Shown piece after piece: positions 37,340 through 61,000 of a DNA stretch of 64,000 nucleotides (positions are counted from its first letter, which is position 1; every line of letters begins with the position of its first letter). A program made the translations under genes and the position numbers. The notes under the pieces are model-generated. The model was not told the origin of the DNA. It did not search any database and saw only the letters and a list, made by a program, of their open reading frames with translations. The DNA is from Candidatus Spongiisociaceae bacterium. GTDB lineage: Bacteria > Actinomycetota > Acidimicrobiia > Spongiisociales > Spongiisociaceae. The stretch covers positions 2,368,001 through 2,432,000 of the forward strand of contig CBDCOH010000002.1 of NCBI GenBank assembly GCA_965219685.1. Reading direction: 5' to 3'.

Positions 37340-37360
37340 CGATATCGGATCACGATATCG
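37340..37360. promoter_or_regulatory. Operator-like motif, copy 1: CGATATCG-gatca-CGATATCG
   Basis: Perfect copy in a divergent promoter region, just downstream of a TACAGT -10-like box (37328-33). Confidence 0.85.
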
Positions 37361-37394
37361 AGTGTCGAGGGCCTTGCGCGGAGGCAAGAACCGG

Positions 37395-38711
37395 ATGGAC
37401 CGCAACCCGCTGGATGTACTCGCCGACCACATACTCGAGCTCAGGTTCGAGGCGATACCCGACCAGGTGATAAGGCAGGCGAAGGCCGTCATACGCCACG
37501 ACCTGGCAGTCGGGATGCTCGGCAGCGGCACCGACGAGGCCCTTAGAGCAGTGGATTTCGCGACTTCGACGGGCAATTCGGGCTCGTCGACCGTAATCGG
37601 GCACCGGATGACACTGGCTCCGATCGACGCGGCGTTCGCCAACGCGGTGATCATGCGCTCGCTCCGGCAGGAGGATTCGATCCTCCCTTCGTTCATCCAC
37701 CCCGGTCCCATGGTCATACCCCCCGCCCTGGCGATCGCCGAAGCACGCGGGCTTGCCGGACACGAGGTGATCACCGCGGTGGTAGCGGCCTACAACGTGC
37801 TCGGAGTGTTGGCCGGATCGGAATGGACGTGGGAGAAGTGCGCCCGCACGCCTTCCCATGTATACGGCGCTTTCGGAGCGGCAGCCGTTTCGGCCCGGCT
37901 CCTGGGTCTGGACCCCGATCAGACGCGAACGGCGCTGGCTTACGCCGGTAACTACGGCGCGATGATCACCCACGGTTTCCACAACCACCAGTACGGCGTC
38001 CTGGCCCGTAACGGTATGACCGCGGCCGGACTCGGGCGAGCTAGGGCCCCTTACAGGGAAGATGCTCTCGAAGGGCCGCACGGCTTCTTCGAAGCCCAGG
38101 TCGGCGCAGTGCGGCCGAGCCTCCACGAGGACCTGCAAGGAGTCGGAAGGCGCTGGGAGATCATGACCGCCGTTCTCAAGCCCTACCCGTGCACGGCGAT
38201 CAACGTGGTACCGCTCACTCTGATTGAAGAGTTGTTGAGACGGGAAGGACTCTCCGCCGACGGGGTTGCCCGGCTGACGGTACGGAGATCGAGAGATTCG
38301 TTCCGCGTTCCCGGGATCAACGACCCTGATCCGCATGCGAAGGAGTTCGGACGGGTCAGTTCGCTGCAGTTCAACCTGGCGGTCATGCTGCTGCGAGGAT
38401 CGGTGACACCGGAGTCTCATAGGGATCCCGACCTCGCCGAACGTGCCGCCGGCCTGGCGGGCATCATCCGGATCGAGCCTTCCGCCTCGACGGACCTACT
38501 CCACCACGAGGTACTCCTGACCGCATCGGACGGACGCCGGTTCCGTGTCTCCGGAGGTGCGGAGGTCCTGGCCGCGCCCCGACCGGTGGCCATCGCGCGG
38601 ATGTATCCCGGGAGCGACTCGACGGCAGCCCGGATCGAACGGATGGTCTCCGAGGTCCATCAACTCGACTCGGCCGACCGCGTAACCGGGTTGATGCGAT
38701 GCGTCGCGTGA
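37395..38711 (+). CDS. MmgE/PrpD family protein (divergent)
   Basis: L.FEAIP..V...AK, AAFANA, ED...HPG..VIPPALA, ARNG..AA, LEG..GFF, KPYPC. Confidence 0.9.
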   Translation: MDRNPLDVLADHILELRFEAIPDQVIRQAKAVIRHDLAVGMLGSGTDEALRAVDFATSTGNSGSSTVIGHRMTLAPIDAAFANAVIMRSLRQEDSILPSFIHPGPMVIPPALAIAEARGLAGHEVITAVVAAYNVLGVLAGSEWTWEKCARTPSHVYGAFGAAAVSARLLGLDPDQTRTALAYAGNYGAMITHGFHNHQYGVLARNGMTAAGLGRARAPYREDALEGPHGFFEAQVGAVRPSLHEDLQGVGRRWEIMTAVLKPYPCTAINVVPLTLIEELLRREGLSADGVARLTVRRSRDSFRVPGINDPDPHAKEFGRVSSLQFNLAVMLLRGSVTPESHRDPDLAERAAGLAGIIRIEPSASTDLLHHEVLLTASDGRRFRVSGGAEVLAAPRPVAIARMYPGSDSTAARIERMVSEVHQLDSADRVTGLMRCVA

Positions 38712-38811
38712 CCACCGGCGCAGCGGGGCCGGGTCGTAACGACCGGTCGGGAGTCACGGCCGCGCTGTTAGCGTGCCCCGAACCCGAACCCCGGCGCGGG
38801 GAGGAGCCGCC

Positions 38812-39180
38812 ATGATGGAAGACCTGATCGCGAATACCTACGACGTGATCGACGCCAACCCGGTCCTCGCGGGCGAGACCTTCCGGGTAACCCACCTTCA
38901 ACGAACCGAGAGATCCACGAGCGCGGTGTGCTCCATCGAGGCGGGCGGGGGCCTACGACCGCACATCCACCACCACCACGACGAGGTCATCGTCTTCCTG
39001 GAAGGCGAAGCCGACTTCCGCCTCGGCGACGAGATACGGCAGGTGAGAGCCGGTGATGTGGCGGTCGTACCGGCCGGAACCGCACACGCCACTATGAACG
39101 CCGCCACCCGTGTGGTCATAGCCGCGGTCTTCGCTCCCAACTTCGATCCCGAGAACGAGGACCGCGAGTACGTCGACTGA
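38812..39180 (+). CDS. Cupin domain protein
   Basis: PHIH..HDE....LEG, AGD..VVPAG..H; GAGGAG RBS. Confidence 0.9.
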   Translation: MMEDLIANTYDVIDANPVLAGETFRVTHLQRTERSTSAVCSIEAGGGLRPHIHHHHDEVIVFLEGEADFRLGDEIRQVRAGDVAVVPAGTAHATMNAATRVVIAAVFAPNFDPENEDREYVD

Positions 39181-39348
39181 CCGTCTGGGTGTCAGGTGAT
39201 TGTACGGATTCCTGACATCTTCGACTGCCGAAGTCGACCGGCATAACGAGCAAGGTGCGGTAGCCGTTTACGGCAACCGGCAACCCGCACCTGACTGCCG
39301 CCGCGGCCGGTTGGGAAGCGAGCCGGTGGGCCACGTAGTGTGGTGCCC

Positions 39349-40554
39349 ATGGCATCGACCGCGCCACCGGATAGGCCGCGCTCCGCCGACGTCTCCCCGG
39401 CAGATCCCGGGTTCCTGGAGCGGATCATCGGTCTGCGGCGAGAATTGCACCGCCATCCGGAACTCTCGGAGCAGGAGGAGCGGACTGCCGGTCTCATCTG
39501 CTCGTTTCTGGAGGAACTCGGAATCCCTTACCGGGCCGGGGTCGGAGGGAACGGTGTGGTGGCGCGTTTGAGCGGCCGCAAGGTCGGGCCCGTGGTGGCC
39601 CTTCGAGCCGATATCGATGCCTTGCCGATACGGGAGGAGACCGGGCTCCCGTTCGCTTCGGCGGTCGAAGGCGTGATGCACGCCTGCGGCCACGACGGCC
39701 ACACCGCCATGCTGATGGGCGCGGCGATTCTGCTCCGCGCAGAGCCTCCCCCTTACCCGGTCCGGCTCCTGTTCCAGCCGGCCGAGGAGCGCGGGAGCGG
39801 GGCGCGGATGATGATCGCGGACGGGGCTATCGACGGGGTATCCGCCGTCTTCGGCGGACACCTGGACATCAACTACCCGGTCGGAACGCTGGTGGTCAGC
39901 GATGGAGCGGTCAACGCAGCGTCCGACTACTTCACGATCCGTATCAAGGGCAGGACGGGACACGCCGCCAGGCCTCACCAAGCGGTGGACGCAGTGGTTG
40001 CCGGGGCGTCGCTGGTGAGCGCACTCCAGACGATCGTCGCTCGAGAGGTAGACCCAGCAGATCCGGCGGTGCTCACGGTGGGAAGTTTCACCGCCGGAAC
40101 CGCCGAGAACGTAATCGCCGGCGCCGCCAGGCTCACTGGGACCATCCGTACCCTCGACCCCGAGGTACGCCGGCATCTCTGTGACTCGGTGGTCCGGATG
40201 GCCACCGCGGTCGCGCAGTTGCATGGCTGCGCGGTGGAACCGGAGGTGCGAGAGGGTAACCCACCAGTCGTCAATGCCCCGGCTATTACGCGGTTGGCCC
40301 GGCAGGCCGCGTCGGCGGTCGTGGAGGACACCGGCTTGCTACAGATGCACACCGTCAACATGGGATCCGAGGACTTCGGGCGATACCTGGAGAGGGTTCC
40401 CGGCTGTTACATCCGGTACGGCGGTCTCACGCCCGGTCATGAACCGTCGCCAGCCCATTCGGGCCGTTTCGACTTCGATGAGCGGGCGCTCGGCATCGGG
40501 GCGCGATGGCTCGACAAGGTCGCACGGGTAGCGGGCGAGGAACTGGCCCGCTAG
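39349..40554 (+). CDS. M20D-family amidohydrolase (hippurate/N-acyl-amino acid hydrolase-like)
   Basis: RRELHRHPELS, LRADIDALP, MHACGHDGH, FQPAEE, GSEDF. Confidence 0.95.
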   Translation: MASTAPPDRPRSADVSPADPGFLERIIGLRRELHRHPELSEQEERTAGLICSFLEELGIPYRAGVGGNGVVARLSGRKVGPVVALRADIDALPIREETGLPFASAVEGVMHACGHDGHTAMLMGAAILLRAEPPPYPVRLLFQPAEERGSGARMMIADGAIDGVSAVFGGHLDINYPVGTLVVSDGAVNAASDYFTIRIKGRTGHAARPHQAVDAVVAGASLVSALQTIVAREVDPADPAVLTVGSFTAGTAENVIAGAARLTGTIRTLDPEVRRHLCDSVVRMATAVAQLHGCAVEPEVREGNPPVVNAPAITRLARQAASAVVEDTGLLQMHTVNMGSEDFGRYLERVPGCYIRYGGLTPGHEPSPAHSGRFDFDERALGIGARWLDKVARVAGEELAR

Positions 40555-40558
40555 CTAC

Positions 40559-41671
40559 TCAACCCTCCAGTGCTCGCGTGACCGCCGCCATGAAACGGCG
40601 TCCCTCGGCGCCATCGATTATGCGATGATCGTAGGAGAGGCTGAGGGGAAACTGCCGGACGGCGGCAATGGCGCCATCCCGGACCACCGGACGCGGTTCG
40701 GCACGCCCGACCGAGAGGATGGCGGTGGTTCCGTAGGGGATGATCGGAGTCCCGCGTCCCCCACCGACCGCCCCGATGTTCGAGACGGTGAAGGTCTGGC
40801 CCCTTAGTTCATCAACCTGCAAGGTCCGTTCCTTCGCGCCAGAGGCCAGCCTGCGCACCTCTGCGCCCAGATCCTCGATCGAGAGGGTGTCGGCGTCATG
40901 GACTACCGCAACCATCAGCCCGTCGGGGGTGTCGACCGCGAATCCGATGTCGTAGAACCGGCGTTCGACGATGTCATTACCTTCCACCGCTGAGTTGAAT
41001 CCGGGAAACCGAACCAGCAAGGGGACGAGGCGGGCGATGAGGAGAGCCTCGACCGGTGGCTTGCCGAGACGTCTCCGTTCAGCCATGAGCCGGTCCGAAT
41101 CCGCGTGCCCGTAGGTGGTCACGTGGGGTATCTCCCGCCAGGACCGGGACAGGCTCTCTGCGATTGTCCTGCGGAGGCGGGCCATCGGTATCCGGACCGC
41201 AGGACGGGCGGAGGCGGCCGCCCGCACATCATCTTCGGTGATGCGTCCTAGCGGACCGGTTCCGCGAACCCCTGAGAGGTCCACCCCCAACTCGTCGGCC
41301 AGTTTCCTCACGTAGGGCAGGGCGAGCGGCCGGCGGGGTACTCCAGGATCCGCCTCCGGGAGAACACCTACCACAGGCGCTGACCGCCGCTCAGCGGGCG
41401 GCGGCGCTCCGGGTGCGTGGTCCCAACGCTCACCGGGCTCCCCGATCACCGCGAGGAGCGAATCGACCTCCACCGTTTCCCCGTCCTCCCCGCCTCGGTG
41501 CAACAGAACACCCGCGAACGGCGAAGGTATGTCGACGATCGCCTTGTCGGTCTCCACCTCGACCAGCGGTTCGTCGAGCCCGACCCGTGCGCCCACCTCC
41601 ACGTACCAGGAGACGATCGTCGCCTCCACGAGACCCTCGCCCACGTCGGGAAGGTGGAATTCTCGCGCCAT
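40559..41671 (-). CDS. 2-oxoacid dehydrogenase E2 (dihydrolipoamide acyltransferase)
   Basis: Single lipoyl domain ETDKA, E3-binding GTGP.GRI, catalytic DHRIIDG. Confidence 0.95.
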   Translation of the reverse strand: MAREFHLPDVGEGLVEATIVSWYVEVGARVGLDEPLVEVETDKAIVDIPSPFAGVLLHRGGEDGETVEVDSLLAVIGEPGERWDHAPGAPPPAERRSAPVVGVLPEADPGVPRRPLALPYVRKLADELGVDLSGVRGTGPLGRITEDDVRAAASARPAVRIPMARLRRTIAESLSRSWREIPHVTTYGHADSDRLMAERRRLGKPPVEALLIARLVPLLVRFPGFNSAVEGNDIVERRFYDIGFAVDTPDGLMVAVVHDADTLSIEDLGAEVRRLASGAKERTLQVDELRGQTFTVSNIGAVGGGRGTPIIPYGTTAILSVGRAEPRPVVRDGAIAAVRQFPLSLSYDHRIIDGAEGRRFMAAVTRALEG

Positions 41672-41672
41672 C

Positions 41673-42647
41673 TCAGCCCGCCAGAGCGTGCTCGGCAGCA
41701 GAAACGATCCGGGACACCGATGGCATGTAGTGACGTTCTGCGAGCCGCAGTGGAACCACGACATCCCACCCCGTCACTCTCTGCACCGGCGCTCGCAGCG
41801 AATAGAGGGCCCGTTCCTGTATCAGCGCCACGATCTCGGCGCCGTAACCGCCGGTCAGGGGTGCCTCGTGAACGATGACGGCGCGGCCGGTCTTCTCGAC
41901 CGACGAGACGATCAGATCCGCGTCGAGGGGCACGAGGGTTCTCACGTCGACCACCTCGGCGCTCACGCCCTCTTCAGCCAGCTTGGCAGCGGCCTCCCTC
42001 GTCTCGCGCATCATCGCGCCGTAGGAGACGAGTGATACATCGGAGCCCGGTTGCTCGACTACGGCCGAGCCGATGGCCGTCGTGTAGCGGCCACTCGGCA
42101 CCTCGCCCCGGGCCGCCCGGTACAGACGGATCGGCTCCATGAATATGACCGGATCCGGGTCGTCCACCGCCGCGAGGAGCAGACCCTTCGCGTTCTCGGG
42201 CGTGGAGGCAACCACGACCTTGAGGCCCGGAATGTGAGCGTAGATGGCTTCTGTCGACTCGCTGTGGTGCTCGGCGGCTCCTATCCCCGCTCCGAAGGGA
42301 AGCCGGATCACCATGGGGGCGGTGAATCGGTGCCGGGATCGGTTCCGGATCCTGGCAACGTGGTTGATCACCTGGTCGTAGGCCGGATAGGAGAAACCCA
42401 TGAACTGGATCTCGACTATGGGCCGGATTCCGGCAACCGCCATCCCGAAGGCAGCTCCGACTATCCCCGACTCCGCCACCGGGGTGTCGATGACCCGCTC
42501 CGTTCCATGCTTGCGGGCCAGCCCGTCGGTGATCCGGAACACGCCTCCGGTCGTCCCGATGTCCTCCCCCATCACCACCACCCGGGGATCCGACAGGGCG
42601 TGGTCGAGCGCCGAGTTGAGAGCCTGCGCCATGGTCATGACGCTCAT
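41673..42647 (-). CDS. 2-oxoacid (pyruvate/branched-chain) dehydrogenase E1 beta
   Basis: GEDIG..GGVFR, DTPVAESGI, EIQFMGF, EHHSES. Confidence 0.96.
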   Translation of the reverse strand: MSVMTMAQALNSALDHALSDPRVVVMGEDIGTTGGVFRITDGLARKHGTERVIDTPVAESGIVGAAFGMAVAGIRPIVEIQFMGFSYPAYDQVINHVARIRNRSRHRFTAPMVIRLPFGAGIGAAEHHSESTEAIYAHIPGLKVVVASTPENAKGLLLAAVDDPDPVIFMEPIRLYRAARGEVPSGRYTTAIGSAVVEQPGSDVSLVSYGAMMRETREAAAKLAEEGVSAEVVDVRTLVPLDADLIVSSVEKTGRAVIVHEAPLTGGYGAEIVALIQERALYSLRAPVQRVTGWDVVVPLRLAERHYMPSVSRIVSAAEHALAG

Positions 42648-43684
42648 CGCCAGCCCCTCTCCGCCAGGCAACGCTGGAGCAACAACGGCGCGGTCGGCTC
42701 CTGGTAGGTGGCGTCGAAGATTTCCCCGGCGCTGAACGACGCTAGTGACTCAGCCTCGGCAACGGCATCCTCGATCCGCTGTGATGCCCGATCCTGCAGG
42801 TCGGCCTGCCACCTGTCGTTCCAGGCTTCCCGCCGCTGCAGCCATAGGCGAACCCGCTCCAGGGGGTCCTTGCCGCGCCACGCGGTGACATCCTCCTGCT
42901 CCCGGTACCGTCGATGGTCGTCTGCAGTGGTGTGGCCGTGAATCCGGTACGTGAGGGCCTCGATCAGCGTCGGGCCCTCACCGGCGCGAGCCCTTGCGAC
43001 CGCCTCGCCGACAACTTCTTCGACGGCCAGGACATCGTTGCCATCGACCATGACTCCCGGAAAGCCGTAGGCCACGGCCTTCTGGGCGATGGTTTCGGAC
43101 GCCGTCTGCCGGGACCGGGGCATGGAGATGGCCCAACCGTTGTTCTGGCACAGGAACACCGTGGGGAGGCGGTAGACGCCCGCGAAGTTCATCGCCTCGT
43201 GGAAGTCCCCCTCCGAGGTGGCCCCGTCCCCGAACATCGTCAGGGCAACGGCATCGGTTCCCATCAGCTTCTCCGCCCAGGCGACCCCCACCGCATGGAT
43301 CATGTGCCCGCCCACCGTTATGGAGGGCGGGAGGACTTTGACACCCTCCGGTGGATGACCGCCCCGCTCGTCGCCCATTCTGGTTAGGAGCAGGTTCGTC
43401 CATGGGTAGCCGTGGAAGCGCATCGCGGCGGCATCCCGGTAGCTGGCCACCAGCCAGTCCCCCTTAGCCAGCGGTGCGACCGCCCCGACCTGGGCAGCCT
43501 CCTGGCCCTCGTAAGGTGCATAGGTGGCGAGGCGACCCTGGCGCTGGAGGGCCGACGCCTTGTGGTCGTAGAGTCGCGCCTCCACGAGCGCTGCGTACCG
43601 GGCGCGCACGGTGCGCACGTCGGGCGCTGTGCGGCCGGTCAGAACACCGTCCGGAGCGAGTATCTGGCGAGGCTTGAGGTGCAT
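42644..43684 (-). CDS. 2-oxoacid (pyruvate/branched-chain) dehydrogenase E1 alpha
   Basis: LQRQGR, GQEAAQVG, TPP motif GDGATSEGD...QNN, HTTADD. Confidence 0.96.
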   Translation of the reverse strand: MHLKPRQILAPDGVLTGRTAPDVRTVRARYAALVEARLYDHKASALQRQGRLATYAPYEGQEAAQVGAVAPLAKGDWLVASYRDAAAMRFHGYPWTNLLLTRMGDERGGHPPEGVKVLPPSITVGGHMIHAVGVAWAEKLMGTDAVALTMFGDGATSEGDFHEAMNFAGVYRLPTVFLCQNNGWAISMPRSRQTASETIAQKAVAYGFPGVMVDGNDVLAVEEVVGEAVARARAGEGPTLIEALTYRIHGHTTADDHRRYREQEDVTAWRGKDPLERVRLWLQRREAWNDRWQADLQDRASQRIEDAVAEAESLASFSAGEIFDATYQEPTAPLLLQRCLAERGWR

Positions 43685-43706: not shown

Positions 43707-43727
43707 CGATAACGAATCACGATATCG
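43707..43727. promoter_or_regulatory. Operator-like motif, copy 2: CGATAACG-aatca-CGATATCG
   Basis: Between the divergent E1-alpha and ferredoxin genes; TACAGT at 43697-702. Confidence 0.82.
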
Positions 43728-43796
43728 GATGTCGAGACCATCGGTCGGGAGGGCAGGAATGCACCGCCGTCCCGTGCCGGGTCAGCGGGGATTCAA

Positions 43797-44045
43797 ATGG
43801 CGGACATCGTTGAGCGCAAGGTGGGTGACCTGACCCTCCGGATTGATCGCGACCTGTGCGTCGGATTCGAGCATTGCACGGACGAGTCGCCCACCGCCTT
43901 CCGGCTCGGTGACTACGACGTGGTCGAGTTCGCCGACCCCGAACAGGAGGACAGGTCACGCCTGATCACGGCATCCGAGGTCTGTCCCGTGGACGCACTT
44001 ACCGTGGTCGACTCGGAGGGCAACCAACTGGTTCCGCGAGCCTGA
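43797..44045 (+). CDS. Single-cluster ([3Fe-4S]-type) ferredoxin
   Basis: IDRDLCVGFEHC...CPVDAL. Confidence 0.88.
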   Translation: MADIVERKVGDLTLRIDRDLCVGFEHCTDESPTAFRLGDYDVVEFADPEQEDRSRLITASEVCPVDALTVVDSEGNQLVPRA

Positions 44046-44108
44046 GCCGGCCCCCGGGCGGGCGGGAAACGTCGTACGATTGTGAGCAGACCGACGGAAG
44101 GGACCGGG

Positions 44109-44435
44109 ATGAGCAGCGGATCGCTGGTGGAGTTGACGACGGCCGCGGCCGAGAAGGTGATCGAACTCGCCGACGGGGAGGCGGACCGCGCCTACCTGCA
44201 CGTCTATCCCGCGGGCCAGGGATGCTGCCGGACGGTCTACGGCCTCGCGTTCCTACCCCAGGTAGACGACGAGTTCGAGGTGTCCGAGACGCACGGCGTC
44301 AAGGTGGCGGTGGCCACCAAGTCCCGCGATACGGTCCAAGGCGTCGAGATCGACTTCGTGCAAACACCCCAAGGCGATGGGTTCACGGTCATCAACCAGA
44401 ACCCCACCGCAGGCGGTGGCTGCGCCTGCCACTGA
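44109..44435 (+). CDS. HesB/IscA-family Fe-S carrier
   Basis: LT..AA.KV, GCC...YGL, IDF...GF...NQN...GCAC. Confidence 0.9.
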   Translation: MSSGSLVELTTAAAEKVIELADGEADRAYLHVYPAGQGCCRTVYGLAFLPQVDDEFEVSETHGVKVAVATKSRDTVQGVEIDFVQTPQGDGFTVINQNPTAGGGCACH

Positions 44436-44601: not shown

Positions 44602-44622
44602 CGGTATCGGGCTACGATATCG
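44602..44622. promoter_or_regulatory. Operator-like motif, copy 3: CGGTATCG-ggcta-CGATATCG
   Basis: Upstream of the ABC permease; overlaps a TACGAT -10-like box. Confidence 0.8.
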
Positions 44623-44664
44623 CCAATCAAGGTCGCCGCCGGAGAGAACCAGAGGAGGCGGGCT

Positions 44665-45654
44665 ATGTGGGCTTACATCCTGCGACGAGCAGCCCTCGGC
44701 CTTCTCACGTTGTTCGTCATCTCGATCATCTCCTTCATCATCATCCAGCTACCGCCGGGCGATTTCGTGTCAACTGCACTCGCGGAGTTGGCTGAGAGCG
44801 GAACCGAGACCGCAGACGAGTTCGCGGCGCAACTCCGCGCGGAGTACGGGCTGGATCGCCCGCTCGTGGTCCAGTACGGCATCTGGATGAGCCGGGTGCT
44901 GAGGGGCAACCTCGGTACGTCGTTCTTCTACCAGAAACCCGTGGTGGAGGTGATCGGGGATCGGTTGCCGCTCAGCATGCTGGTGTCGATCTCGGCGCTC
45001 GTCTTCACCCTGCTGATCGCGATCCCCATCGGTATCTACTCCGCGGTCCGCCAGTACTCGGTCGGCGACCACATAGCCACGTTCTTCGGCTTCCTCGGCC
45101 TGGCCACGCCCAACTTCCTTCTCGCCCTGGTGCTGTTGTACGTGGGTTTCCTATGGCTCGACGTCTCCTTGGCAGGTCTGTTCTCGGCCGAATACGCGAC
45201 CGCGCCATGGAGCCTCGCCAAGATCGGAGACCTCCTGGTTCACCTTCCGATTCCGGCCATCGTGCTGGGGACCGCGGGAGCAGCGCAATTGATCCGGATC
45301 ACCCGGGCCAACCTGCTGGACGAGAAGCGCCAGCCCTACGTGACGACCGCCCGGGCGAAGGGCCTGTCGAACCGCCGGGCCATAGGCAAGTATCCGGTCA
45401 GGGTGACGATGAATCCGGTCGCGAGCTCGGTGGGCCTGCTGTTTCCCAGCATCGTCTCGGGTGCGGTGATCGTGTCGGTGGTGCTGAGCCTCCCCACGAT
45501 GGGTCCGGTCCTGCTGAGTTCTTTGCTCAGCCAGGACATGTACCTCGCCGGGGCCATCATCCTCCTGCTGGGCGCGTTCACGGTACTCGGGGTGTTCCTC
45601 TCCGACCTTGTCCTGATGTGGCTCGATCCCCGCATCCGCCATGGCCACTACTGA
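44665..45654 (+). CDS. Opp/Dpp/Nik-type ABC permease (B subunit)
   Basis: YGLDRP..VQY..W, ARAKGL, DPRIR; GAGGAGG RBS. Confidence 0.95.
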   Translation: MWAYILRRAALGLLTLFVISIISFIIIQLPPGDFVSTALAELAESGTETADEFAAQLRAEYGLDRPLVVQYGIWMSRVLRGNLGTSFFYQKPVVEVIGDRLPLSMLVSISALVFTLLIAIPIGIYSAVRQYSVGDHIATFFGFLGLATPNFLLALVLLYVGFLWLDVSLAGLFSAEYATAPWSLAKIGDLLVHLPIPAIVLGTAGAAQLIRITRANLLDEKRQPYVTTARAKGLSNRRAIGKYPVRVTMNPVASSVGLLFPSIVSGAVIVSVVLSLPTMGPVLLSSLLSQDMYLAGAIILLLGAFTVLGVFLSDLVLMWLDPRIRHGHY

Positions 45655-51725: not shown

Positions 51726-51726
51726 G

Positions 51727-53429: not shown

Positions 53430-56161
53430 ACGTCCACCATAACTTTCAGGAGGGTCGAGGCATCGTGCACCGTTTCCAGCCTGTCGACCAGATCCAGAAC
53501 CTCCGCGACCCGACCCCGGGAACCGGCAGGCAAGGCGGCCTCCAACGAGACTCGCCGGCTCGCGCGATATGTCGGCAGGACCGAGAGCCCCCCTTGAAGT
53601 CTCTCAACCCGGCCGGAACTCGTGGTCACCGTCACCCTGGCGGAATATGGATCGTCGAAGTGCCGGTAGTTAAGTCTTACACCCGCCGGCAGAGGCGACC
53701 TCGCGGCGGCCGAACCCGGCCCCATAACCACTTCTGCCGGTTGCCTCCCCTCCATCAGCCGCGCGACCTTCAGGCGCAGCACGTCGGCCTGGGACATCCG
53801 GCGATCGAAGCCCGGGAGGCTGCACCGGGCGGAGGCGTCCCAGCGCCTGCGAATCTCGGGGAGCGAGACCTCCGCCGCAACGGGTCTCTCCTTCTCGGTC
53901 GCCAGCATGGCCGACAAGCGGCCGGCCAGTTCGATGGGGACGAGGTGGTTGTGATCGACGGAGTGCCGGCTGACGATGGCCTCGTCGAGTCCGAACCTGG
54001 CGCCCAGTCGCGACAGCGCCTCGTCCAGGCCTGCCGGAACCGAACCCAGAGTCGACCTGTACAAGCCGAACTCACCCTCGATCATCAGGTCGGCGGCCGG
54101 GAACCCCGCCTCGGCGAGGAGCGCAGCGAAGACACCGTTGCGAGCCAGTTGTGCATTGACGACTGCTTCCTCCTCGACTCCCTCGATCAGTCCCATGGTC
54201 AGGTGACAGGCCTGTCCCATGGCGTCGGCTGTGAGTTTCTCGTCCAGTCCGAGCAGGCGGGCCGCCATACAGGCAACCGCTACTGGCCCGAACACGCAAT
54301 CAGCCCGGCGGGCCGTCGCGGTCCCCCACGCCCAGGTGCCGGCGGACAGCGCGAGGGCGACGTCGTAGCCGATGGCGATGGCCACCAGCAGTTCCCTCCC
54401 CGGGACGTTCCGGTCCTCGCTCAGTGCCAGCGCGACTGGAATGGTCATGGCCCCCGGACGGAGACCCCCGGCCATACTGTCCTGCCAACCCCGGGCCTGC
54501 ATGCTCAGCGAATTCGCAAACACCGCGTCCAGGAGGCGGAGAGTGGGACGCTGGCCTATGAAGGAATACCTGCCGGGTCTCCCGGTCCGTGGATCAGCCG
54601 CGGACGACCGACCCTGCAACGCCAGCGCGAGATGGTGGACGAGTAGATCCTTGCCCCGGTCAATGACCGCAGGAGGGAAATCCCGGTACCTGGCTCCGGC
54701 CGTGTAGGCGGCTATCCGCTGGGAAGCCGTCCGGCCCGGGACACGATCAAGACCCCAGAAGACCCCTGGCGCCGGATCGGCTCGGGTGGCGAACCGGTCA
54801 AGCGCAGTCCACAGGCCGGCGGCACCGTGCGACTCCTCGAGCCCCTCAACCGAGGTCACCAGGTGTTCGATCGCGGGCGAAGGGGCTGCCGGGAGGAGAT
54901 CGGCCAACCATTCCCTGTGGTCCATGGGAGGGGTCGGGGAAGCGGCATGACTCTCCCGGACATGCCGCCGGCCGTTGGTGGTGACAACCGTTAGGCGAGC
55001 CGAGCGTAGAGGCAACCCGTGCACGTAGTCCAAGGATGTCCGATCGACCAGATCCAGGAATCCCGCGGGCATGTCCTCGCGGTACCGGGCCGGATTCAGT
55101 TCCCCATCCCACAGCCACGCGGCCACCAGGAACCGGGGAGACGCGTAACGGCTGATATACCGGCGTTCACCGGCGTCCCGGTACCGGCGGAAGTTGCGGT
55201 CGAAGTCCTCCTCGCGAGGCCGACGCTCTTCGGGAAGCGTGAGGTGGATCAAGGCGACGTCGGGCACGGTTATCCCAGTGGTCCGGATCAGGTCGTCCAT
55301 CAACTCGACCGGCACGACGTTGAAACCGCTGCACCGGTAACGCTTCCGGAATGCGTGCGAGATCCCGAAGTCCGTTCCCAACCCGTCCATTGCCGAGACG
55401 ACCTCTCCGGGAACCTCTCCCAGGTAGGTCTCGTACAGACCGAAAGGACCCTCGAGAATCGATGGAGTGGATCGGACCCCGGCCGAAGCCAGCAGAGCAG
55501 CCTCAACCCCGTTGCGCGTGATCTGCGGATAGAGGACCCGAGCGAACGGAGTCCCCTCGATGAGGCCGACCGCACCGTTGGCCGCCAGTCCCAGCGCGTG
55601 AGCCGTCCGATCCGCACCGAACCCCAGTAGGCGCGACGCTACCGCCGCCACGCCCACCGGACCCACCACGCAACCGGAACGGCGGGGCGTGCTAACCCCC
55701 CAGGTCCAGGTGCCCCGGGCAAGGGCCACAAGGAGGTCATACCCGACCGCCACGGCTGACAGAAACTCCCGACCGGTGATGGGTCTCGTCTCGGCGAGCG
55801 CCAGGACGGTGGGGAAGACCAGCACGCCCGGGTGGGTGCCCCCCAGGGCCGCGTCGTCCAACGCATCCTCGCCCATGAGCAACGAATTGACGAACACCGC
55901 CTCGAGCAACCCGTACCTGCCCCTTGCGCCCAGAACCCTGTGTCGCCCCCCTCCATCCGATAGCCTTCCGGCCAGAGACCGTGCCCTCCCCGCGCTCGGG
56001 TTTCCGGTGGCGGCCAGAGCAAGACCGACATGGTGCACCAGGTGATCCTTGGCGAGCCCGACCACGTCGGGGGGGATCGCCTCGAACGGGAGTCCCGACA
56101 CGTGGCTCGCCAACCTTCGGGTTAGAGAGACGGCTGGTTCACCGGCGGTCGGCATCGACAT
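53420..56161 (-). CDS. Tandem two-domain MmgE/PrpD protein (~913 aa)
   Basis: Two complete repeats (AKDHLVHH...DD...HPG...EG.FGLY and GKDLLVHH...QD...RPG...EGEFGLY); start ATG 56161 or 56155. Confidence 0.88.
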   Translation of the reverse strand: MSMPTAGEPAVSLTRRLASHVSGLPFEAIPPDVVGLAKDHLVHHVGLALAATGNPSAGRARSLAGRLSDGGGRHRVLGARGRYGLLEAVFVNSLLMGEDALDDAALGGTHPGVLVFPTVLALAETRPITGREFLSAVAVGYDLLVALARGTWTWGVSTPRRSGCVVGPVGVAAVASRLLGFGADRTAHALGLAANGAVGLIEGTPFARVLYPQITRNGVEAALLASAGVRSTPSILEGPFGLYETYLGEVPGEVVSAMDGLGTDFGISHAFRKRYRCSGFNVVPVELMDDLIRTTGITVPDVALIHLTLPEERRPREEDFDRNFRRYRDAGERRYISRYASPRFLVAAWLWDGELNPARYREDMPAGFLDLVDRTSLDYVHGLPLRSARLTVVTTNGRRHVRESHAASPTPPMDHREWLADLLPAAPSPAIEHLVTSVEGLEESHGAAGLWTALDRFATRADPAPGVFWGLDRVPGRTASQRIAAYTAGARYRDFPPAVIDRGKDLLVHHLALALQGRSSAADPRTGRPGRYSFIGQRPTLRLLDAVFANSLSMQARGWQDSMAGGLRPGAMTIPVALALSEDRNVPGRELLVAIAIGYDVALALSAGTWAWGTATARRADCVFGPVAVACMAARLLGLDEKLTADAMGQACHLTMGLIEGVEEEAVVNAQLARNGVFAALLAEAGFPAADLMIEGEFGLYRSTLGSVPAGLDEALSRLGARFGLDEAIVSRHSVDHNHLVPIELAGRLSAMLATEKERPVAAEVSLPEIRRRWDASARCSLPGFDRRMSQADVLRLKVARLMEGRQPAEVVMGPGSAAARSPLPAGVRLNYRHFDDPYSARVTVTTSSGRVERLQGGLSVLPTYRASRRVSLEAALPAGSRGRVAEVLDLVDRLETVHDASTLLKVMVDVCG

Positions 56162-56189
56162 CGGACTACGATATCGGTTGCCGAGATCA
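56156..56189. promoter_or_regulatory. Operator-like motif, copy 5: CGACATCG-gacta-CGATATCG-gttgc-CGAGATCA
   Basis: In the short gap between the divergent MmgE/PrpD genes; overlaps the leftward start codon and TACGAT. Confidence 0.82.
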
Positions 56190-56237: not shown

Positions 56238-57584
56238 ATGCCCTCAAGCGGTCCATCGGTAAGCGAGAGACTGGCCCGCCATGTCGTCTCGCTGCGTTTC
56301 GATGATCTGCCCACCGAGATCGTGGAACGCGCCAAGGACCACCTGGTGCACCATGTGGGTCTCGGAATACAGGGCCGGAACAGTGAGTACGGGAAGAAGG
56401 CGCGCCGAAACGCGGCCCGGCTCAGCGCGACCGGCGGGCGGTTCTCGGCCATCGGCGAGAAGCCGGCCCTAGGACTGCTCGACGCGGTGTTCGTGAACTG
56501 CCTCTACATGCACCACAGCGGCCAGGACGATTCGGAGTCTGCCGGCACCCATCCCGGGGTCCTCGTGTACCCGGCGGCTCTGAACCTCTCGCAGGACCGC
56601 ACCGTCAGCGGGAAGGAGTTCCTGGTGGCTTGCGTGATCGGCTACGACGTGTCGATGGTCCTGAGCGCCGGAACTTGGGCATGGACCGCCCCCGCGCCCA
56701 GGAGAAGCAATGCGATCTTCGGGCCGGTCGCGGTCGCCGCCACCGCCGCCCGCCTGCTCGGCCTTTCCGAGTCACAGACCGTGGATGCGCTGGGCCAGGC
56801 CTGCCATGGAGCGCTGGGTCTGATCGAAGGAACCCGGTTCATATGGGTGGTGTATCCGTGGGAGTGCCGGGCGGGAGTGTTCGCCGCCACCCTCGCCGAG
56901 TCGGGCCTCCGGGCCGCGCCGAGCATGATCGAAGGCGACTTCGGCCTTTACCGGACGCTGCTCCAGGAGGTCCCGTCCGGCATCGACGAGAACCTCGCCA
57001 CTCTGGGCTCCTACTTCCGCATCGTGGAAGCGCGAGTCAAGAAGTACAGCGCCAGCAACCTGAACGCTGGCATCCTCGACGCGACGAAGAGGGTGTGCGA
57101 GGCGAAGTCGATCCGGCCGGAGCATGTGGAGTCGATCCTGATCGAACTGCCCGACAGCCGCAGGATACGGGAGAAGCGCATGGAGGAGAACTTCTCCAGG
57201 TACGTGGATCTCGCCTCGCGGTGCGGCTCGCTGCGCTTCCTGACGGCGTTGATCCTCCGCGACGGCGACCTCGACAGCCGGATCTACACCGACCCCATCC
57301 CCGAGGACCTCCGGGCGCTGATCGACTCGATCTCCCTGCGCTTCCTGGACGAGGCACCGTCCAATTACTACGGGAGGGTCACCATACGGACCACCGACGG
57401 CGGGGCGGAAAGGGTCGAGTACGGGCGCGACGGCGTCGACTATCCGGAAGTGGACCGGGAGGGATGGATGTCCAGGTGCGTGGGCGACGATCCCTCGGTC
57501 GACGTTGATCGTCTCCTGCAGATCGTCAGCGAACTGGAGCAGCTACCCGACGCATCGGTCCTCCTCGAAGCCCTCTCGGGCTGA
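56238..57584 (+). CDS. MmgE/PrpD family protein (divergent)
   Basis: L.FDDLP..IVERAKDHL, QDD...HPG, EGDFGLY, KKY; AAGGAGG RBS. Confidence 0.9.
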   Translation: MPSSGPSVSERLARHVVSLRFDDLPTEIVERAKDHLVHHVGLGIQGRNSEYGKKARRNAARLSATGGRFSAIGEKPALGLLDAVFVNCLYMHHSGQDDSESAGTHPGVLVYPAALNLSQDRTVSGKEFLVACVIGYDVSMVLSAGTWAWTAPAPRRSNAIFGPVAVAATAARLLGLSESQTVDALGQACHGALGLIEGTRFIWVVYPWECRAGVFAATLAESGLRAAPSMIEGDFGLYRTLLQEVPSGIDENLATLGSYFRIVEARVKKYSASNLNAGILDATKRVCEAKSIRPEHVESILIELPDSRRIREKRMEENFSRYVDLASRCGSLRFLTALILRDGDLDSRIYTDPIPEDLRALIDSISLRFLDEAPSNYYGRVTIRTTDGGAERVEYGRDGVDYPEVDREGWMSRCVGDDPSVDVDRLLQIVSELEQLPDASVLLEALSG

Positions 57585-57708
57585 TGGTGCGTACGAGGAT
57601 GGTCCTGCATGCCTGGGAGAGCGTTCCGAAAGGAACCGGGATGGATCGAACGGGACTCTTGATCCGGGTTACGACCGGCGCCACGGCCCCGGTGACAGGA
57701 CGGACATC

Positions 57709-58440
57709 ATGACCGGCGCCCGAGGTGGAAGGACCGTCTACGGGCTGGCGCTCGGCGTCATCATGCTCGACACCAAGTTCCCGCGCCTCCGGGGCGATGT
57801 CGGCAATGCCCGCACCTGGCCCTTCCCCGTTCGTTACCGGATCGTGGAGGGGGCCATCCCCGAGCGTATGGCCCAGGCCGATCCCGATCCCGAGTTACTG
57901 GCTCCCTTCTTGGATGCCGCCCGTGCGCTGGAGTCGGAAGGCGTGCGAGCCATCTGCACCAGCTGCGGGTTCCTGGCGGTCAACCAGCCGGAGTTGGCGT
58001 CGGCCGTGGAGGTACCGGTCTTCTCGTCGCCGCTCCTCCAGGTTCCGATGGCGGCCGCCGCGGCGGGGGGCAGGAAGGTGGTGATCCTGACCGCCCGGAC
58101 CGTGCTCACCGAACAGCACTACCGGGGAGCGGGCTGGTCCTCGCAGGATTTGTCCGTGGTCCAGATGGCGCCCCCCGAGGACAGCCACTTCTACACCACC
58201 TTCGTGGGTAACTCGCCCGAGGCGGACAGCCGGATACTCGAGCGGGAACTTGCCGACCTGGCCAGGAGGGTCGTCTCCGAACACCCCGACGCCGGGGCGA
58301 TCGTGATGGAGTGCGCCAACTTCCCGCCGTTCGGCCAGATCGTCCGGTCGATCACCGGCCTGCCGGTCTTCGACCTGTACACGATGGGGATGTACGCCTA
58401 CCTGGCGAGTTCCGGGACCGAGTTCCCGCGAACCCTGTAA
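57709..58440 (+). CDS. Asp/Glu/hydantoin racemase superfamily protein
   Basis: LDT.FPR..GD.GN..T.PFPV, TSCGF and MECANF (two catalytic Cys). Confidence 0.9.
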   Translation: MTGARGGRTVYGLALGVIMLDTKFPRLRGDVGNARTWPFPVRYRIVEGAIPERMAQADPDPELLAPFLDAARALESEGVRAICTSCGFLAVNQPELASAVEVPVFSSPLLQVPMAAAAAGGRKVVILTARTVLTEQHYRGAGWSSQDLSVVQMAPPEDSHFYTTFVGNSPEADSRILERELADLARRVVSEHPDAGAIVMECANFPPFGQIVRSITGLPVFDLYTMGMYAYLASSGTEFPRTL

Positions 58441-58444
58441 CCCG

Positions 58445-59044
58445 GTGAACGCACCTAAGGAGGGATCGACCGAACCGCGGCGGGACCGGCTGGGGATCGG
58501 CGCCATCGCCACGGTCTTCTTCAGGATGGGGATCGTGGCGTTCGGAGGGCTTCTCCTGCTGCTCGTATTGATCGAGCGGGAGTTGGTGGACAAGCGCCCG
58601 GCGCTGACCAAGCGGCAGATCACCGAAGCCGTCACCTACACGCGCCTCCTTCCCGGTTCGGGTGGCCCTCTCGTGGTCTCCTACCTCGGCTACGTGCTGA
58701 GGGGGGTCGGCGGGTCGGGGGTCGCCACCCTGATGTATCTCCTTCCCGGGATACTCGTCATGACCGGGTTGGCGGTGGGTTTCGTCGCCATCTCCACCCT
58801 GCCCTTGCTCAGCCCCGCCATCGAAGGCCTCCTGGCTGCCGTCGTCGGCATCCAGTCGGTATACCTCTACCGGTTCGCCCGGAAGGCGATCATCGACGCG
58901 GTCACGGCCACCATCCTCGTAGCCGGGCTGTGCGCGACGCTCCTCCTGGATGTCAGCGCGCCGCTCGTCGTCCTGCTGGCCGGAATGGTGGGGATCGTCC
59001 TGTTCACCAAGAGCCTCGGTGCGGAAGTTGCGGATGATGGCTGA
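58445..59044 (+). CDS. Short-chain CHR transporter subunit 1
   Basis: FFRMG..AFGG, ELV.K, LLPG. Confidence 0.85.
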   Translation: MNAPKEGSTEPRRDRLGIGAIATVFFRMGIVAFGGLLLLLVLIERELVDKRPALTKRQITEAVTYTRLLPGSGGPLVVSYLGYVLRGVGGSGVATLMYLLPGILVMTGLAVGFVAISTLPLLSPAIEGLLAAVVGIQSVYLYRFARKAIIDAVTATILVAGLCATLLLDVSAPLVVLLAGMVGIVLFTKSLGAEVADDG

Positions 59045-59597
59045 ACTGCTCGACCTGTTCTGGCAGTTCATGCTGTTCAGCCTTCTCGCCTTCGGTGGAG
59101 GGGGAACCGTATTGGGCCTGGTGGACCGGGTGGCCGTGGCGGACAAGGGATGGATCACGCCGGCGGAGTTCTCGGCGGCGGTCGGCTTCACTTTCATCAC
59201 TCCGGGACCGATCCTCGTTCTGGCGCCCTTCGTCGGCTATCTCGTGGCGGGAGCGCCGGGCGCGGTGGTCGCCACCTTCGGCGTATTCCTGGCCCCTTGG
59301 ACACTGGCCATGGGATCGGCCCACCGGCTCCGGCAGTACCTCCACCATCCCCGGCTCCGGGCCTTCGGCAAGGGCGCGGGACCGGCCATCGTCGGCCTGT
59401 TCAGCCTCGCCGTGCTCACCATCGCCAGATCCAGCATCTCCAACGTGGCCATGGTCGCCGTGGCGCTGGTAGCAGGGGTCCTGATGACGAGGACGAAGCT
59501 CCATCCGATCCTCATCCTGGTGGGCGGAGCGTTGGCGGGCCTGGTGCTTGGCCTCACCGGCCTCGGCGACGCGATACCGGAGGTCCGGATCCCCTAG
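59034..59597 (+). CDS. Short-chain CHR transporter subunit 2
   Basis: LAFGGG, GWIT..EF, TPGP, FVGY. Confidence 0.87.
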   Translation: MMAELLDLFWQFMLFSLLAFGGGGTVLGLVDRVAVADKGWITPAEFSAAVGFTFITPGPILVLAPFVGYLVAGAPGAVVATFGVFLAPWTLAMGSAHRLRQYLHHPRLRAFGKGAGPAIVGLFSLAVLTIARSSISNVAMVAVALVAGVLMTRTKLHPILILVGGALAGLVLGLTGLGDAIPEVRIP

Positions 59598-59649
59598 TTG
59601 GTAGTTGGGGTTAGATCGGGTCGCTTTCCATCAACAAAGGGATCCAGCC

Positions 59650-60918
59650 CTACCTGCGGTCGAGGATCCGGAAGCGGGAAGGGCGGAAGGGGGCCATGTC
59701 CACGGATGGATCCTCGTTCGATACGAGTTGGCCGATGATCTCGCCGGTGATCGCGGCCAGGGTGAACCCGATGTGGCCGTGGCCGTAGGCGAGGAAGACG
59801 TTGGCATGGCGGGGCGCCCGGCCGATGACCGGAAGGGAGTCGGGGTGCGACGGGCGGTAGCTCATCCATCTCCTCGCCCCGTCCGTCCGCAACTCAGGAA
59901 ACACCAGCCTGGTGGCCTCGATCAGGCGGTCGGCGCGCCGGTAGTCGGGCGGGGCTTCGAGTCCGGCCAACTCGTCGGTGCCGGCCAGGCGGAGGCCGTC
60001 GGGAAGGGGGGTCATCGCGAAGTGATGGTCCATCGAGACGATGGGAAAGGGGAGTTCGACCCCCGGATGCGGCAGGTCAACCCCGTAACCGCGCTCCGTG
60101 TCGAGGGGGGTCGCGAAGCCGAGCATCCTCGTGAGGTGCTTGGACCAGGCCCCGGCAGCGATCACCACCAGGTCGGCGGGAAGCGCCCCGCTCGTCGTCT
60201 CGACGGCGACTATCCGATCTCCCGACCGGACGAACCCCGAGACCTCCCCCGCCACGCGACGACCCCCCGCGGCGACCATGCGGTCCGTAAGCACCGTGCA
60301 CAGTCGTAGCGGGTCGGCCCAAGGGGCCTTGGGAATGTAGACGCCGTGGCTGAAACGGCCCGCCAGCACCTCGGACAGTCCCGCCACTCCGTCCGCGTCA
60401 AGGACCCGCATGTCGATGCCCCGCCTCCGCCTCGTCTCGATGGCGAAGGCCGCCTTGGCGAACACCGCGTCGGTCCCATAACCCAGTAGATGCCCGCCTT
60501 CGATGAGAGCGCCGCCGGAGTCATGCACGGGTAGCACCTCCTCCCACGCCCGGAGTGCCTGCTTGACCAGACGAGCGAGCGCGATGGAGGCGCGCTCGAC
60601 ACGCGCCGGCCTCGCCGAGGCGATGAACCGAAGCAGCCATGGCACCATCCGCGGTAGGTAGCGCCACCGGATCGCGAGGGGTGAGTACGGGTCGAGCAGC
60701 ATCCGGGGCACCGACCGGATGACCCCGGGAGTCGCCGTCGGGAGGCAGTTTCCCACCGAGAACAGACCGGCGTTGTGACCTGAGGCTCCGTCGCCGGGAG
60801 CGCCCCTGTCCACGACGGTCACCTCGTAGCCACGCCGGAGCAGATGCATCGCGCAGCAGAGTCCCACCGTTCCACCGCCTACTACGACAGCAAGCCTTGG
60901 ATCCCCGGACGATGTCAT
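59650..60918 (-). CDS. FAD-dependent D-amino acid dehydrogenase (DadA-like)
   Basis: GGGTVG, ASGHNAG, AAGAWS, RGY, RP..PDSLPVIG, GHGH.G.T. Confidence 0.92.
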   Translation of the reverse strand: MTSSGDPRLAVVVGGGTVGLCCAMHLLRRGYEVTVVDRGAPGDGASGHNAGLFSVGNCLPTATPGVIRSVPRMLLDPYSPLAIRWRYLPRMVPWLLRFIASARPARVERASIALARLVKQALRAWEEVLPVHDSGGALIEGGHLLGYGTDAVFAKAAFAIETRRRRGIDMRVLDADGVAGLSEVLAGRFSHGVYIPKAPWADPLRLCTVLTDRMVAAGGRRVAGEVSGFVRSGDRIVAVETTSGALPADLVVIAAGAWSKHLTRMLGFATPLDTERGYGVDLPHPGVELPFPIVSMDHHFAMTPLPDGLRLAGTDELAGLEAPPDYRRADRLIEATRLVFPELRTDGARRWMSYRPSHPDSLPVIGRAPRHANVFLAYGHGHIGFTLAAITGEIIGQLVSNEDPSVDMAPFRPSRFRILDRR

Positions 60919-60926
60919 CGGCCCTC

Positions 60927-60947
60927 CGATATTGGGATGCGATATCG
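60927..60947. promoter_or_regulatory. Operator-like motif, copy 6: CGATATTG-ggatg-CGATATCG
   Basis: In the divergent promoter between the dadA-like and CCG genes. Confidence 0.82.
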
Positions 60948-61000
60948 AACTTCGAGCATTATGGTACGTCCCGACCGAGGCACGGTGGATCGGAGGATCT

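Follow-up and report, generated by a model that had tools for sequence, protein, structure and literature searches.

The classical operators of PadR and LmrR are inverted repeats of the type ATGT-N8-ACAT. In these systems, the promoter overlaps with an inverted repeat to which a dimeric winged-helix repressor binds until a small molecule releases it. A comparable arrangement, as a proposal only, is described here for a 64-kb stretch of the genome of a Candidatus Spongiisociaceae bacterium (GenBank assembly GCA_965219685.1, contig CBDCOH010000002.1, positions 2,368,001 to 2,432,000), referred to as the window in the following, in which six promoter regions of one gene island carry the same palindromic motif. 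Half-site and spacing differ from those of the classical operators (ATCG-N5-CGAT instead of ATGT-N8-ACAT), and the units abut in twos or threes with a period of 13 bp. Judged from the sequence, the six sites are probably operators of one trans-acting repressor, for which a PadR protein of the Rv3488/ChrI type, encoded outside the window, is the best candidate.

With regard to their arrangement, the sites resemble the met-boxes of MetJ and the operators of Arc and Mnt. There, short palindromic boxes lie head to tail, each extra box binds an extra dimer, and repression is cooperative and graded. However, these regulators are ribbon-helix-helix proteins with a period of 8 bp or 11 bp; the comparison concerns the way of working and does not imply homology.

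At the level of the regulator, the closest described system is the Rv3488 family of PadR proteins (NF053635; PDB 5zhc, Rv3488 of Mycobacterium tuberculosis, PadR subfamily 2), which is the nearest family of those PadR genes that are linked to the motif in other organisms. The motif-linked proteins are likewise small winged-helix proteins of about 100–130 amino acids, and their sites lie immediately upstream of their own genes. In contrast, the window possesses no such gene, and the promoters with the array, six or seven in number, belong to operons for metabolism and transport and not to the gene of the regulator itself. The same PadR subfamily occurs in the chrA-padR (ChrI) modules, e.g. chrI-chrA1 of Bacillus cereus SJ1 and those of enterobacterial class 1 integron/IS6100 regions. 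Each of these modules consists of only two genes and has its regulator in cis, whereas the window contains ChrA without padR and an array spread over a 25-kb island of several, mostly catabolic operons.

PadR homologues encoded beside chrA have been described earlier; one of them, ChrI of B. cereus SJ1, is reported to be induced by chromate, in passages that describe no operator for it (PMC2936356). A published operator for a PadR protein of the Rv3488 or chrA-padR type was not found in the literature searched, in which subscription journals are thinly covered, so that an earlier description is possible. Inverted repeats in connection with padR and chrA were found in transposon papers only. 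The 8-bp box itself, CGATATCG, gave literature matches of which those listed are unrelated to a regulator and probably represent primers; one paper on PadR (PMC6624303) also contains the string in its primers.

Operator-like sites at the promoters of the island

A preliminary description of the window had listed six copies of a doubled 8-bp box at positions 37340, 43707, 44602, 49001, 56156 and 60927 (all positions are those of the window), and all six were found again. A search for CGATATCG-N5-CGATATCG with up to three mismatches yielded ten matches in the 64 kb in comparison to 0.41 expected, and none of 100 shuffled sequences reached this number. Beside the six sites, the ten matches comprise three that are shifted by 13 bp and represent the partial third box of sites already counted (43720, 44615 and 56169), and a weak one at 25506 with three mismatches inside an ftsH-like open reading frame (ORF), which is probably due to chance. 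Except for the latter, the core half of the window is free of the doubled motif, as had been noted before. An oriented 30-bp pattern (CGRYAWYG-N5-CGATATCG-N5-CNAG) matched seven times in the window (0.00 expected) and at six places only, five of them exactly and on the plus strand and site 4 on the minus strand with one mismatch; the remaining match is an overlapping reverse one at site 3. The single unit TATCG-N5-CGA was found nine times without mismatch (1.9 expected in 64 kb), each time inside site 1, 2, 3, 5 or 6 and nowhere else. The motif is a real, non-random cis-element located at promoters.

Four of the sites lie in divergent promoter regions and two, sites 3 and 4, in unidirectional ones, in agreement with the first reading of this DNA. 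Site 1 (CGATATCG-gatca-CGATATCG-agtgt-CGAG; 37340..37369, plus strand) separates the genes for a short-chain dehydrogenase/reductase (SDR) remnant, ChrA and a TrkA-like protein on the minus strand from the first PrpD-like gene on the plus strand. Site 2 (CGATAACG-aatca-CGATATCG-gatgt-CGAG; 43707..43736, plus strand) is located between an operon for a pyruvate dehydrogenase (PDH)-like E1-alpha subunit (minus strand) and the genes for a ferredoxin and a HesB protein (plus strand). Site 3 (CGGTATCG-ggcta-CGATATCG-ccaat-CAAG; 44602..44631, plus strand) precedes the permease operon of an Opp/Nik-type ATP-binding cassette (ABC) transporter, and site 4 (read in reverse, CGATAACG-actca-CGATATCC-gcgcg-CCAG; 48992..49021, minus strand) precedes the gene of a family-5 solute-binding protein. 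Site 5 (CGACATCG-gacta-CGATATCG-gttgc-CGAG; 56156..56185, plus strand) lies between the operon for a double PrpD-like protein and an opine dehydrogenase (minus strand) and the operon for PrpD-like protein 4, a racemase-like protein and a pair of short ChrA proteins (plus strand). Finally, site 6 (CGATATTG-ggatg-CGATATCG-aactt-CGAG; 60927..60956, plus strand) separates the gene of a DadA-like flavin adenine dinucleotide (FAD)-dependent oxidoreductase (minus strand) from that of the first CCG-domain protein (plus strand).

The spacer amounts to 5 bp at every site, and the third half-box CGAG is present at sites 1, 2, 5 and 6, both as originally described; at site 3 it reads CAAG and at site 4, on the minus strand, CCAG. 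Two details of that description had to be revised. The positions were right, but the orientation of site 4, which is opposite to that of all others, had passed unremarked. Furthermore, the doubling stands, but the boxes are not equal, as box 1 is variable and box 2 almost constant.

The sites are closely connected with predicted promoters. A consensus scan of 37–50 kb and 55.5–61.5 kb revealed only three sigma-70-like sites, and all three are located on operators. At site 4, the predicted promoter TTGACA-18-TATCGT (48980-49009, plus strand) has its -10 hexamer within a box. The predicted minus-strand promoter TCGACA-18-TATCGT inside site 1 is directed at the SDR remnant, ChrA and channel genes, which would be transcribed from it. 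At site 5, the minus strand carries the predicted promoter TTGACC-17-TATCGT (56196-56168), and 6 nt after its -10 hexamer an in-frame ATG follows at 56161, pointing to a leaderless transcript. In addition, TACAGT hexamers occur 5 nt upstream of box 1 at site 1 (37329-37334) and 4 nt upstream of box 1 at site 2, and TATGGT directly follows the array at site 6 (60960-60965), so that TACAGT, TATCGT or TATGGT hexamers adjoin the operator boxes or sit within them. The overlap with -10 boxes that had been noted earlier is thus present, with the promoters being consensus matches: the sites cover -10/+1 elements as the site of a repressor would, and the overlap with the predicted core promoter has the geometry of a repressor site.

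A start codon 6–8 nt behind a TATCGT of an operator box was observed at 56161 (minus strand) of the window and also at about position 2006 (minus strand) of locus L047 from a metagenome-assembled genome (MAG) of a member of the Gaiellaceae (Actinomycetota). Both cases suggest leaderless transcripts whose -10 hexamer is part of the operator.

Conservation of the sites in related genomes

The oriented 30-bp pattern, which demanded C.AG and box 2, was scanned over genome contigs comprising 596 Gb. At least 117 loci were obtained, and the 2-kb flanks of 80 of them were examined; the source genome is not among the matches listed. At least ten loci are homologues of the island (71–92.5% identical to the window) and stem from the records JAPPFW010000029.1, WTGW01000019.1, VXRE01000153.1 and CAZEZF010000108.1. 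Three of these four MAG records are titled Acidimicrobiia. In the first three records, the spacing of the sites is collinear with that in the window.

The operators are kept at orthologous positions in these genomes. At site 6, 28 of the 30 operator positions are invariant among five genomes that are 76–83% identical overall, in comparison to 11 of 40 and 20 of 40 adjacent columns and 39 of 60 columns in each of the largely coding flanking blocks. Likewise, 28 of 30 positions are invariant at site 5 in three genomes (the window, L106 and L095), and site 2 is fully identical (30/30) in the relative L030, which is itself 92.5% identical overall. Site 3 is also kept in L030 (box 1 reads tGGTATCG) despite unrelated upstream DNA. 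Because 28 of 30 operator positions remain invariant while the flanks diverge, the sites are judged from this comparison to be functional.

A seventh site was found in three of the MAG contigs, 11–13 kb past site 6 and hence about 10 kb beyond the end of the window. It lies in the divergent promoter region of a thiamine pyrophosphate (TPP) enzyme, similar to benzoylformate decarboxylase, and an acyl-CoA dehydrogenase, and a predicted -10 hexamer, TAACGT, is located inside its box 1. The regulon therefore most probably runs on for about 10 kb beyond the window. Long stretches of short tandem repeats were also seen directly upstream of sites (L018, L022 and L030), for example gaaccc/ccccga units in the loci of Acidobacteriota; L030 has gtagcc units and a masked stretch of N.

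Association of the motif with PadR genes in both directions

The preliminary description had proposed to look for transcription factor genes that carry the site, and had named the GntR/FadR family. Such genes were found in other organisms, and they belong to a different family. With a profile built from five PadR ORFs that had been detected by Pfam, PadR genes were identified at 14 of the at least 117 loci listed, in 13 cases directly at the site and in one case at a distance of about 650 bp. Among the matches listed, these loci belong to Bacillus, Actinokineospora, Acidobacteriota, Planctomycetota/Gemmataceae and a MAG of the betaproteobacterial Usitatibacteraceae. PadR is the sole transcription factor family that repeatedly adjoins the motif among the matches listed, and the proteins belong to the Rv3488/ChrI subfamily. 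In a profile search they were nearest to Rv3488 (PDB 5zhc, E=3.6e-37; next entry 1e-17). Their best NCBIfam model is NF053635 with 93–118 bits, which is below the equivalog cut-off of 140, and TIGR03433 is the best model for the acidobacterial proteins. No GntR gene was present in the window or beside those scan sites whose flanking ORFs were scanned; a GntR gene in locus L120, at a distance of more than 2 kb, has no connection with the site there.

The remaining 93 loci listed are neither linked to PadR nor homologous to the island. In 75 of these, the site is surrounded by at least 150 nt of open frame in either direction, a criterion which is rough, especially in GC-rich DNA. The third half-box CGAG occurs at 13 of the 14 PadR loci, and at all ten island-like loci, in comparison to 33 of the 75 coding background loci (matches listed). 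One group of the scan loci (L005, L011, L014 and L083) with the sequence CGATATCG-tgcca-CGATATCG was considered as a second regulon and rejected, as the site of L005, L011 and L014 is located inside the coding sequence of a class-IV aminotransferase. The extended string CGATATCG-tgcca-CGATATCG-tgcca-CGAG occurs inside this pabC-like gene, beside the gene of a chorismate-binding enzyme, in several MAGs of Actinomycetota (L005, L011 and L014; also L083, L113 and L115) and is a conserved coding instance of the same string.

The association was also found in the reverse direction. Thirteen plasmid loci were picked solely by tblastn with two of the motif-linked PadR proteins, and in each of them a site of the ATCG-N5-CGAT type precedes padR or the chrA-padR operon by not more than 250 bp. 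The best match to the doubled box had 2 to 5 mismatches; nine of the 13 loci had three mismatches or fewer, which was matched by at most 4 of 2000 shuffled sequences. Arrays of ATCG/CGAT with a 13-bp phase upstream of chrA or padR were observed on plasmids of E. coli (pHP243), Burkholderia, Rhizobium, Agrobacterium, Hydrogenophaga, B. thailandensis and Bradyrhizobium. The Burkholderia plasmid carries a half-box, a full box and a half-box at 13-bp steps. On pHP243 (NZ_LC520289.1), where the chrA-padR pair is located between sul1 and IS6100, a degenerate 13-bp-phased array, TTATATCG-aattt-CGTTATCG-aattt-CGCT, lies at about 1209-1242, roughly 70 bp upstream of chrA. These arrangements at the plasmid padR sites make it more likely that the binding unit is the 13-bp inverted repeat ATCG-N5-CGAT than the whole 8-bp palindrome; two abutting units share a full 8-bp box.

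The PadR protein of scan locus L076 is 63% identical to the plasmid PadR, homologues of which occur in about 1,900 plasmid records. Moreover, the full-length ChrA protein of the window is 47–50% identical over its full length to the padR-linked ChrA proteins of the plasmids. Genes of the PadR subfamily were also observed next to a gene for a TauE/SafE sulfite-exporter-like protein (L021, 1128-2344) and next to senB of selenoneine synthesis plus chrA (L125, 434-3052). These neighbours may be taken as hints to oxyanions or sulfur- or selenium-related compounds as effectors.

A proposed repressor and the alternatives

A single trans-acting regulator of most operons of the island, as originally suggested, remains the simplest explanation; the GntR/FadR type assumed for it was not borne out. 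In the mechanism proposed here, each site would consist of a few 13-bp inverted repeats (ATCG-N5-CGAT) placed directly against one another; this array reads CGAT/ATCG-N5-CGAT/ATCG-N5-CGAG (the slash marks the junction of two units) and corresponds to the 8-5-8-5-4 pattern first described. The regulator would be a small winged-helix protein of the Rv3488/ChrI subfamily of PadR, encoded outside the window. With one dimer per 13-bp unit, two and possibly three dimers would be situated side by side, and cooperative binding is plausible. As the array is located on the -10 hexamer or just behind it, and would serve both promoters in divergent regions, the bound protein would block RNA polymerase or the formation of the open complex. 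In the window, the regulon would comprise about ten transcription units behind at least six promoter regions, to which the seventh site of the related genomes is added. An effector would release the repressor and thereby induce genes for uptake and breakdown. Binding of PadR at these sites, repression, stoichiometry, effector and pathway are in this respect what we infer from the DNA.

Several observations weigh against a PadR protein in this role. The window encodes no regulator of the island, as was already recorded in the preliminary description: within the 64 kb, none of the island genes codes for a DNA-binding regulator. A PadR-like ORF or remnant was not detected in the window by profile hmmsearch up to E=1, by tblastn (best E=0.38) or by Pfam, and no padR gene is present in the 2-kb flanks of the sites of the relatives. 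What points to PadR is accordingly the association in both directions at other loci, and not a gene of this organism. A non-adjacent PadR protein that controls seven or more promoters would also be unusual, as proteins of the Rv3488/ChrI type are usually encoded beside their target, which is likewise the case in the loci found here. At locus L047, it is a MarR-family gene and not a PadR gene that starts at the third half-box of a perfect doubled box with CGAG, and at locus L040 (CAVYUJ010000014.1) a TetR gene lies just upstream of a site of 3.5 boxes. Furthermore, the likeness in 13-bp architecture among the scan loci is partly imposed by the C.AG and box 2 of the scan pattern. Four of the 13 plasmid loci show matches with 4–5 mismatches only, which were equalled by 18 to 85 of 2000 shuffled sequences, and the plasmid loci are not all independent (L121 is similar to L122, and L120 to L126). 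The site of L040 (2001-2043) consists of three full boxes plus CGAG at 13-bp steps and is located in a MAG of Actinomycetota between the TetR gene and a flavin-monooxygenase/P450 gene pair; this locus may be another regulon that uses the motif.

Some of these points would fit a single repressor of another winged-helix or helix-turn-helix family (MarR, TetR or GntR/FadR), whose likeness to the PadR operators would then be convergent. The MarR gene directly at the doubled box, the TetR gene in front of the array that faces the flavin-monooxygenase gene, and the lack of a PadR gene in the window and in the 2-kb flanks of the relatives all speak in favor of it. However, MarR and TetR each occur once, in comparison to 14 PadR loci among the matches listed, no relative of the MarR protein of L047 was found in the window or at the other loci, no GntR gene adjoins any examined site, and the reverse test from PadR protein to motif was positive at 13 of 13 loci. 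A repressor of another family is therefore considered rather unlikely, yet it is to be taken seriously. It is much less probable that the conserved block is mainly a promoter cassette, in which the boxes supply the -10 hexamer (TATCGT) for bidirectional or leaderless transcription and no dedicated repressor exists. An A before box 2 indeed creates TATCGT on the minus strand at five of the six sites, all three promoter-like matches take a box as -10, and the conserved block of site 6 runs on into CATTATGGTACG. This explanation nevertheless leaves several features unaccounted for: the repetition of an 8-bp palindrome at exactly 13 bp together with a third half-box, the occurrence in both orientations, the TATCGT on the unused strand of the unidirectional site 3, and the link between array and padR in several phyla with different promoter contexts.

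The two boxes are complementary, with 8 of 8 pairs at site 1 and 6 to 8 of 8 at the other sites. In the 5' leader RNA, they could fold into a stem of 8 bp that is closed by a loop of 5 nt and influences attenuation, RNA stability or the binding of a protein; several promoters have the array behind their putative -10 hexamer, where it would be transcribed. Such a hairpin is nonetheless very improbable. All departures from the consensus in eight sites are one-sided, with box 1 varying in seven of eight and box 2 in one of eight sites, and no compensatory change was found; four departures break a pair and three leave only a G-U pair (L004 and L038, whose boxes are identical, are counted once). 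At site 4 and at the site of the TPP enzyme the stem would not be fully transcribed, because the -10 hexamer is located inside box 1. In addition, the array is found in both orientations, at divergent promoters and, upstream of padR, in either orientation. Finally, a chance likeness, a small dispersed repeat or a mobile element without any regulatory role might be assumed. Across 596 Gb the pattern does occur by chance, because the 75 of 93 background loci within open frames look accidental. The expectation for the window is, however, only 0.00 to 0.41, all six sites are intergenic and promoter-proximal, the sites share no flanking similarity, and the operator is better conserved than the neighboring coding DNA. 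An origin by chance or as a repeat is close to refuted. A PadR repressor encoded elsewhere in the genome remains the preferred explanation.

Gene content and significance of the island

The island follows a conserved actinobacterial core (1–32 kb) with disA, clpC, lysS, coaX, panC, folK/B/P, ftsH, hpt and tilS. Within this core half, an IS110-family (DEDD) transposase domain was observed at 4764-5555 (plus strand) in a stretch of lower G+C content (about 0.62). The gene of an extracytoplasmic function (ECF) sigma factor (32842-33564) was considered as the regulator and rejected, because the motif is palindromic and its boxes are not spaced like a -35/-10 pair.

According to Pfam, which was applied to genes tiling the island, with gaps between the called genes too small for another gene, a possible unit downstream of site 1 (34400..37326, minus strand) comprises a TrkA-domain ion channel (34400-35494), a full-length ChrA (35510-36754) and the truncated SDR remnant (36856-37326). 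The latter, located between the ChrA gene and site 1, covers only the first approximately 70 of the 195 positions of the profile before a stop is reached. It seems to be what is left of a gene, marking a rearrangement at the island's left edge. On the other side of site 1, a PrpD/MmgE-like protein (number 1), a cupin and an M20 amidohydrolase are encoded (37395..40554, plus strand). They are followed by the genes for E1-alpha, E1-beta and E2 of a PDH-type complex (40559..43684, minus strand), of which E1-alpha scored 422 bits with TIGR03181 (cut-off 411), and, beyond site 2, by those for a small ferredoxin and a HesB/IscA-like protein (43797..44435, plus strand).

The genes of a complete ABC transporter of the Opp/Dpp/Nik type (44665..51352, plus strand) are distributed over two sites, as two permeases and two ATPases (44665-48907) are preceded by site 3, while the binding protein of 749 amino acids (49103-51352) has its own site 4. 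This family-5 protein is unusually long, with a twin-arginine-like signal (RRRFLK) and about 200 residues before the SBP_bac_5 domain. Directly 3' of its gene, a G+C-rich inverted repeat, gcgagggtggcc...ggccaccctcgc, is located at 51369-51397 (plus strand); it is absent from the list of the terminator scan and is likely a terminator without a T-run.

Between the transporter and site 5, the minus strand (51540..56161) encodes a membrane peptide of 65 amino acids with two helices, a weakly MOSC-like ORF of 218 amino acids, an opine dehydrogenase of the octopine/nopaline type and a double PrpD/MmgE protein of about 913 amino acids. The smallest of these ORFs (51540-51737) was examined as a candidate for a small ribbon-helix-helix regulator and rejected, as it codes for the membrane peptide. 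The largest one (53420-56161) is uninterrupted and contains two MmgE/PrpD N-terminal domains, i.e. a tandem fusion of two PrpD-like proteins; it has two further PrpD-like paralogues beside it (37395-38711 and 56238-57584). The four PrpD/MmgE paralogues scored far below the true PrpD model. On the plus strand behind site 5, PrpD-like protein 4, an Asp/Glu-racemase-like protein (PRK07475) and two short ChrA-family proteins are encoded (56238..59597), so that, with the full-length ChrA downstream of site 1, the island has three genes of this family. Divergent from site 6 are the genes of the DadA-like FAD oxidoreductase (59650-60918, minus strand) and of the first CCG-domain Fe-S protein (61001-62134, plus strand). 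From 61001 to the end of the window, two CCG-domain proteins and an FhuF-like protein are encoded, on the plus and then on the minus strand. In a megablast comparison of 25 kb of the island with plasmids, the only matches were short ones in the M20 gene, none of them longer than 166 bp.

The importer, the opine dehydrogenase, the DadA-like oxidoreductase and its Fe-S partners, the M20 amidohydrolase, the PDH-type complex, the four PrpD/MmgE paralogues and the ChrA-family transporters together suggest a coordinated import and oxidative breakdown of an N-substituted amino acid, an opine-like compound or a polycarboxylate. Members of the MmgE/PrpD family include iminodisuccinate epimerase, and opines are produced by marine invertebrates; literature that links Acidimicrobiia, sponges and opines was not found. 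That all scattered genes form one pathway, as the preliminary description had assumed, goes beyond these findings: it is their co-regulation that we infer, and the regulon extends past the window.

Regulons of repressors and operators as well as PadR repressors are well known, and the mechanism is not of a new kind. What appears to be new is this regulon in uncultured bacteria similar to Acidimicrobiia, and a candidate operator code for the Rv3488/ChrI subfamily. If confirmed, a regulator of this type that serves many promoters far from its own gene would also appear to be new. As a tentative and rather doubtful extension, a PadR protein of the ChrI/Rv3488 type, which normally guards one adjacent efflux or transporter gene, might have been detached from chrA to become the master switch of an island of about 40 kb with seven promoters in a lineage of probably sponge-associated, uncultured Acidimicrobiia, with its operator built into the -10 boxes of divergent or leaderless promoters. 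ATCG-N5-CGAT might then be the operator of the whole subfamily, including chrA-padR on the about 1,900 enterobacterial plasmids and probably Rv3488 of M. tuberculosis.

For the organism, the sites would turn unannotated enzymes and transporters of an uncultured marine actinobacterium into a defined regulon, and from its six or seven promoters it can be predicted which genes work together and where to look for the regulator and its effector. For the protein family, ATCG-N5-CGAT with its period of 13 bp is a candidate DNA code for a widespread and poorly characterized PadR subfamily and may allow the prediction of regulons in many genomes. The chrA-padR module, which accompanies resistance regions on plasmids of enterobacteria, would also fall under this code.

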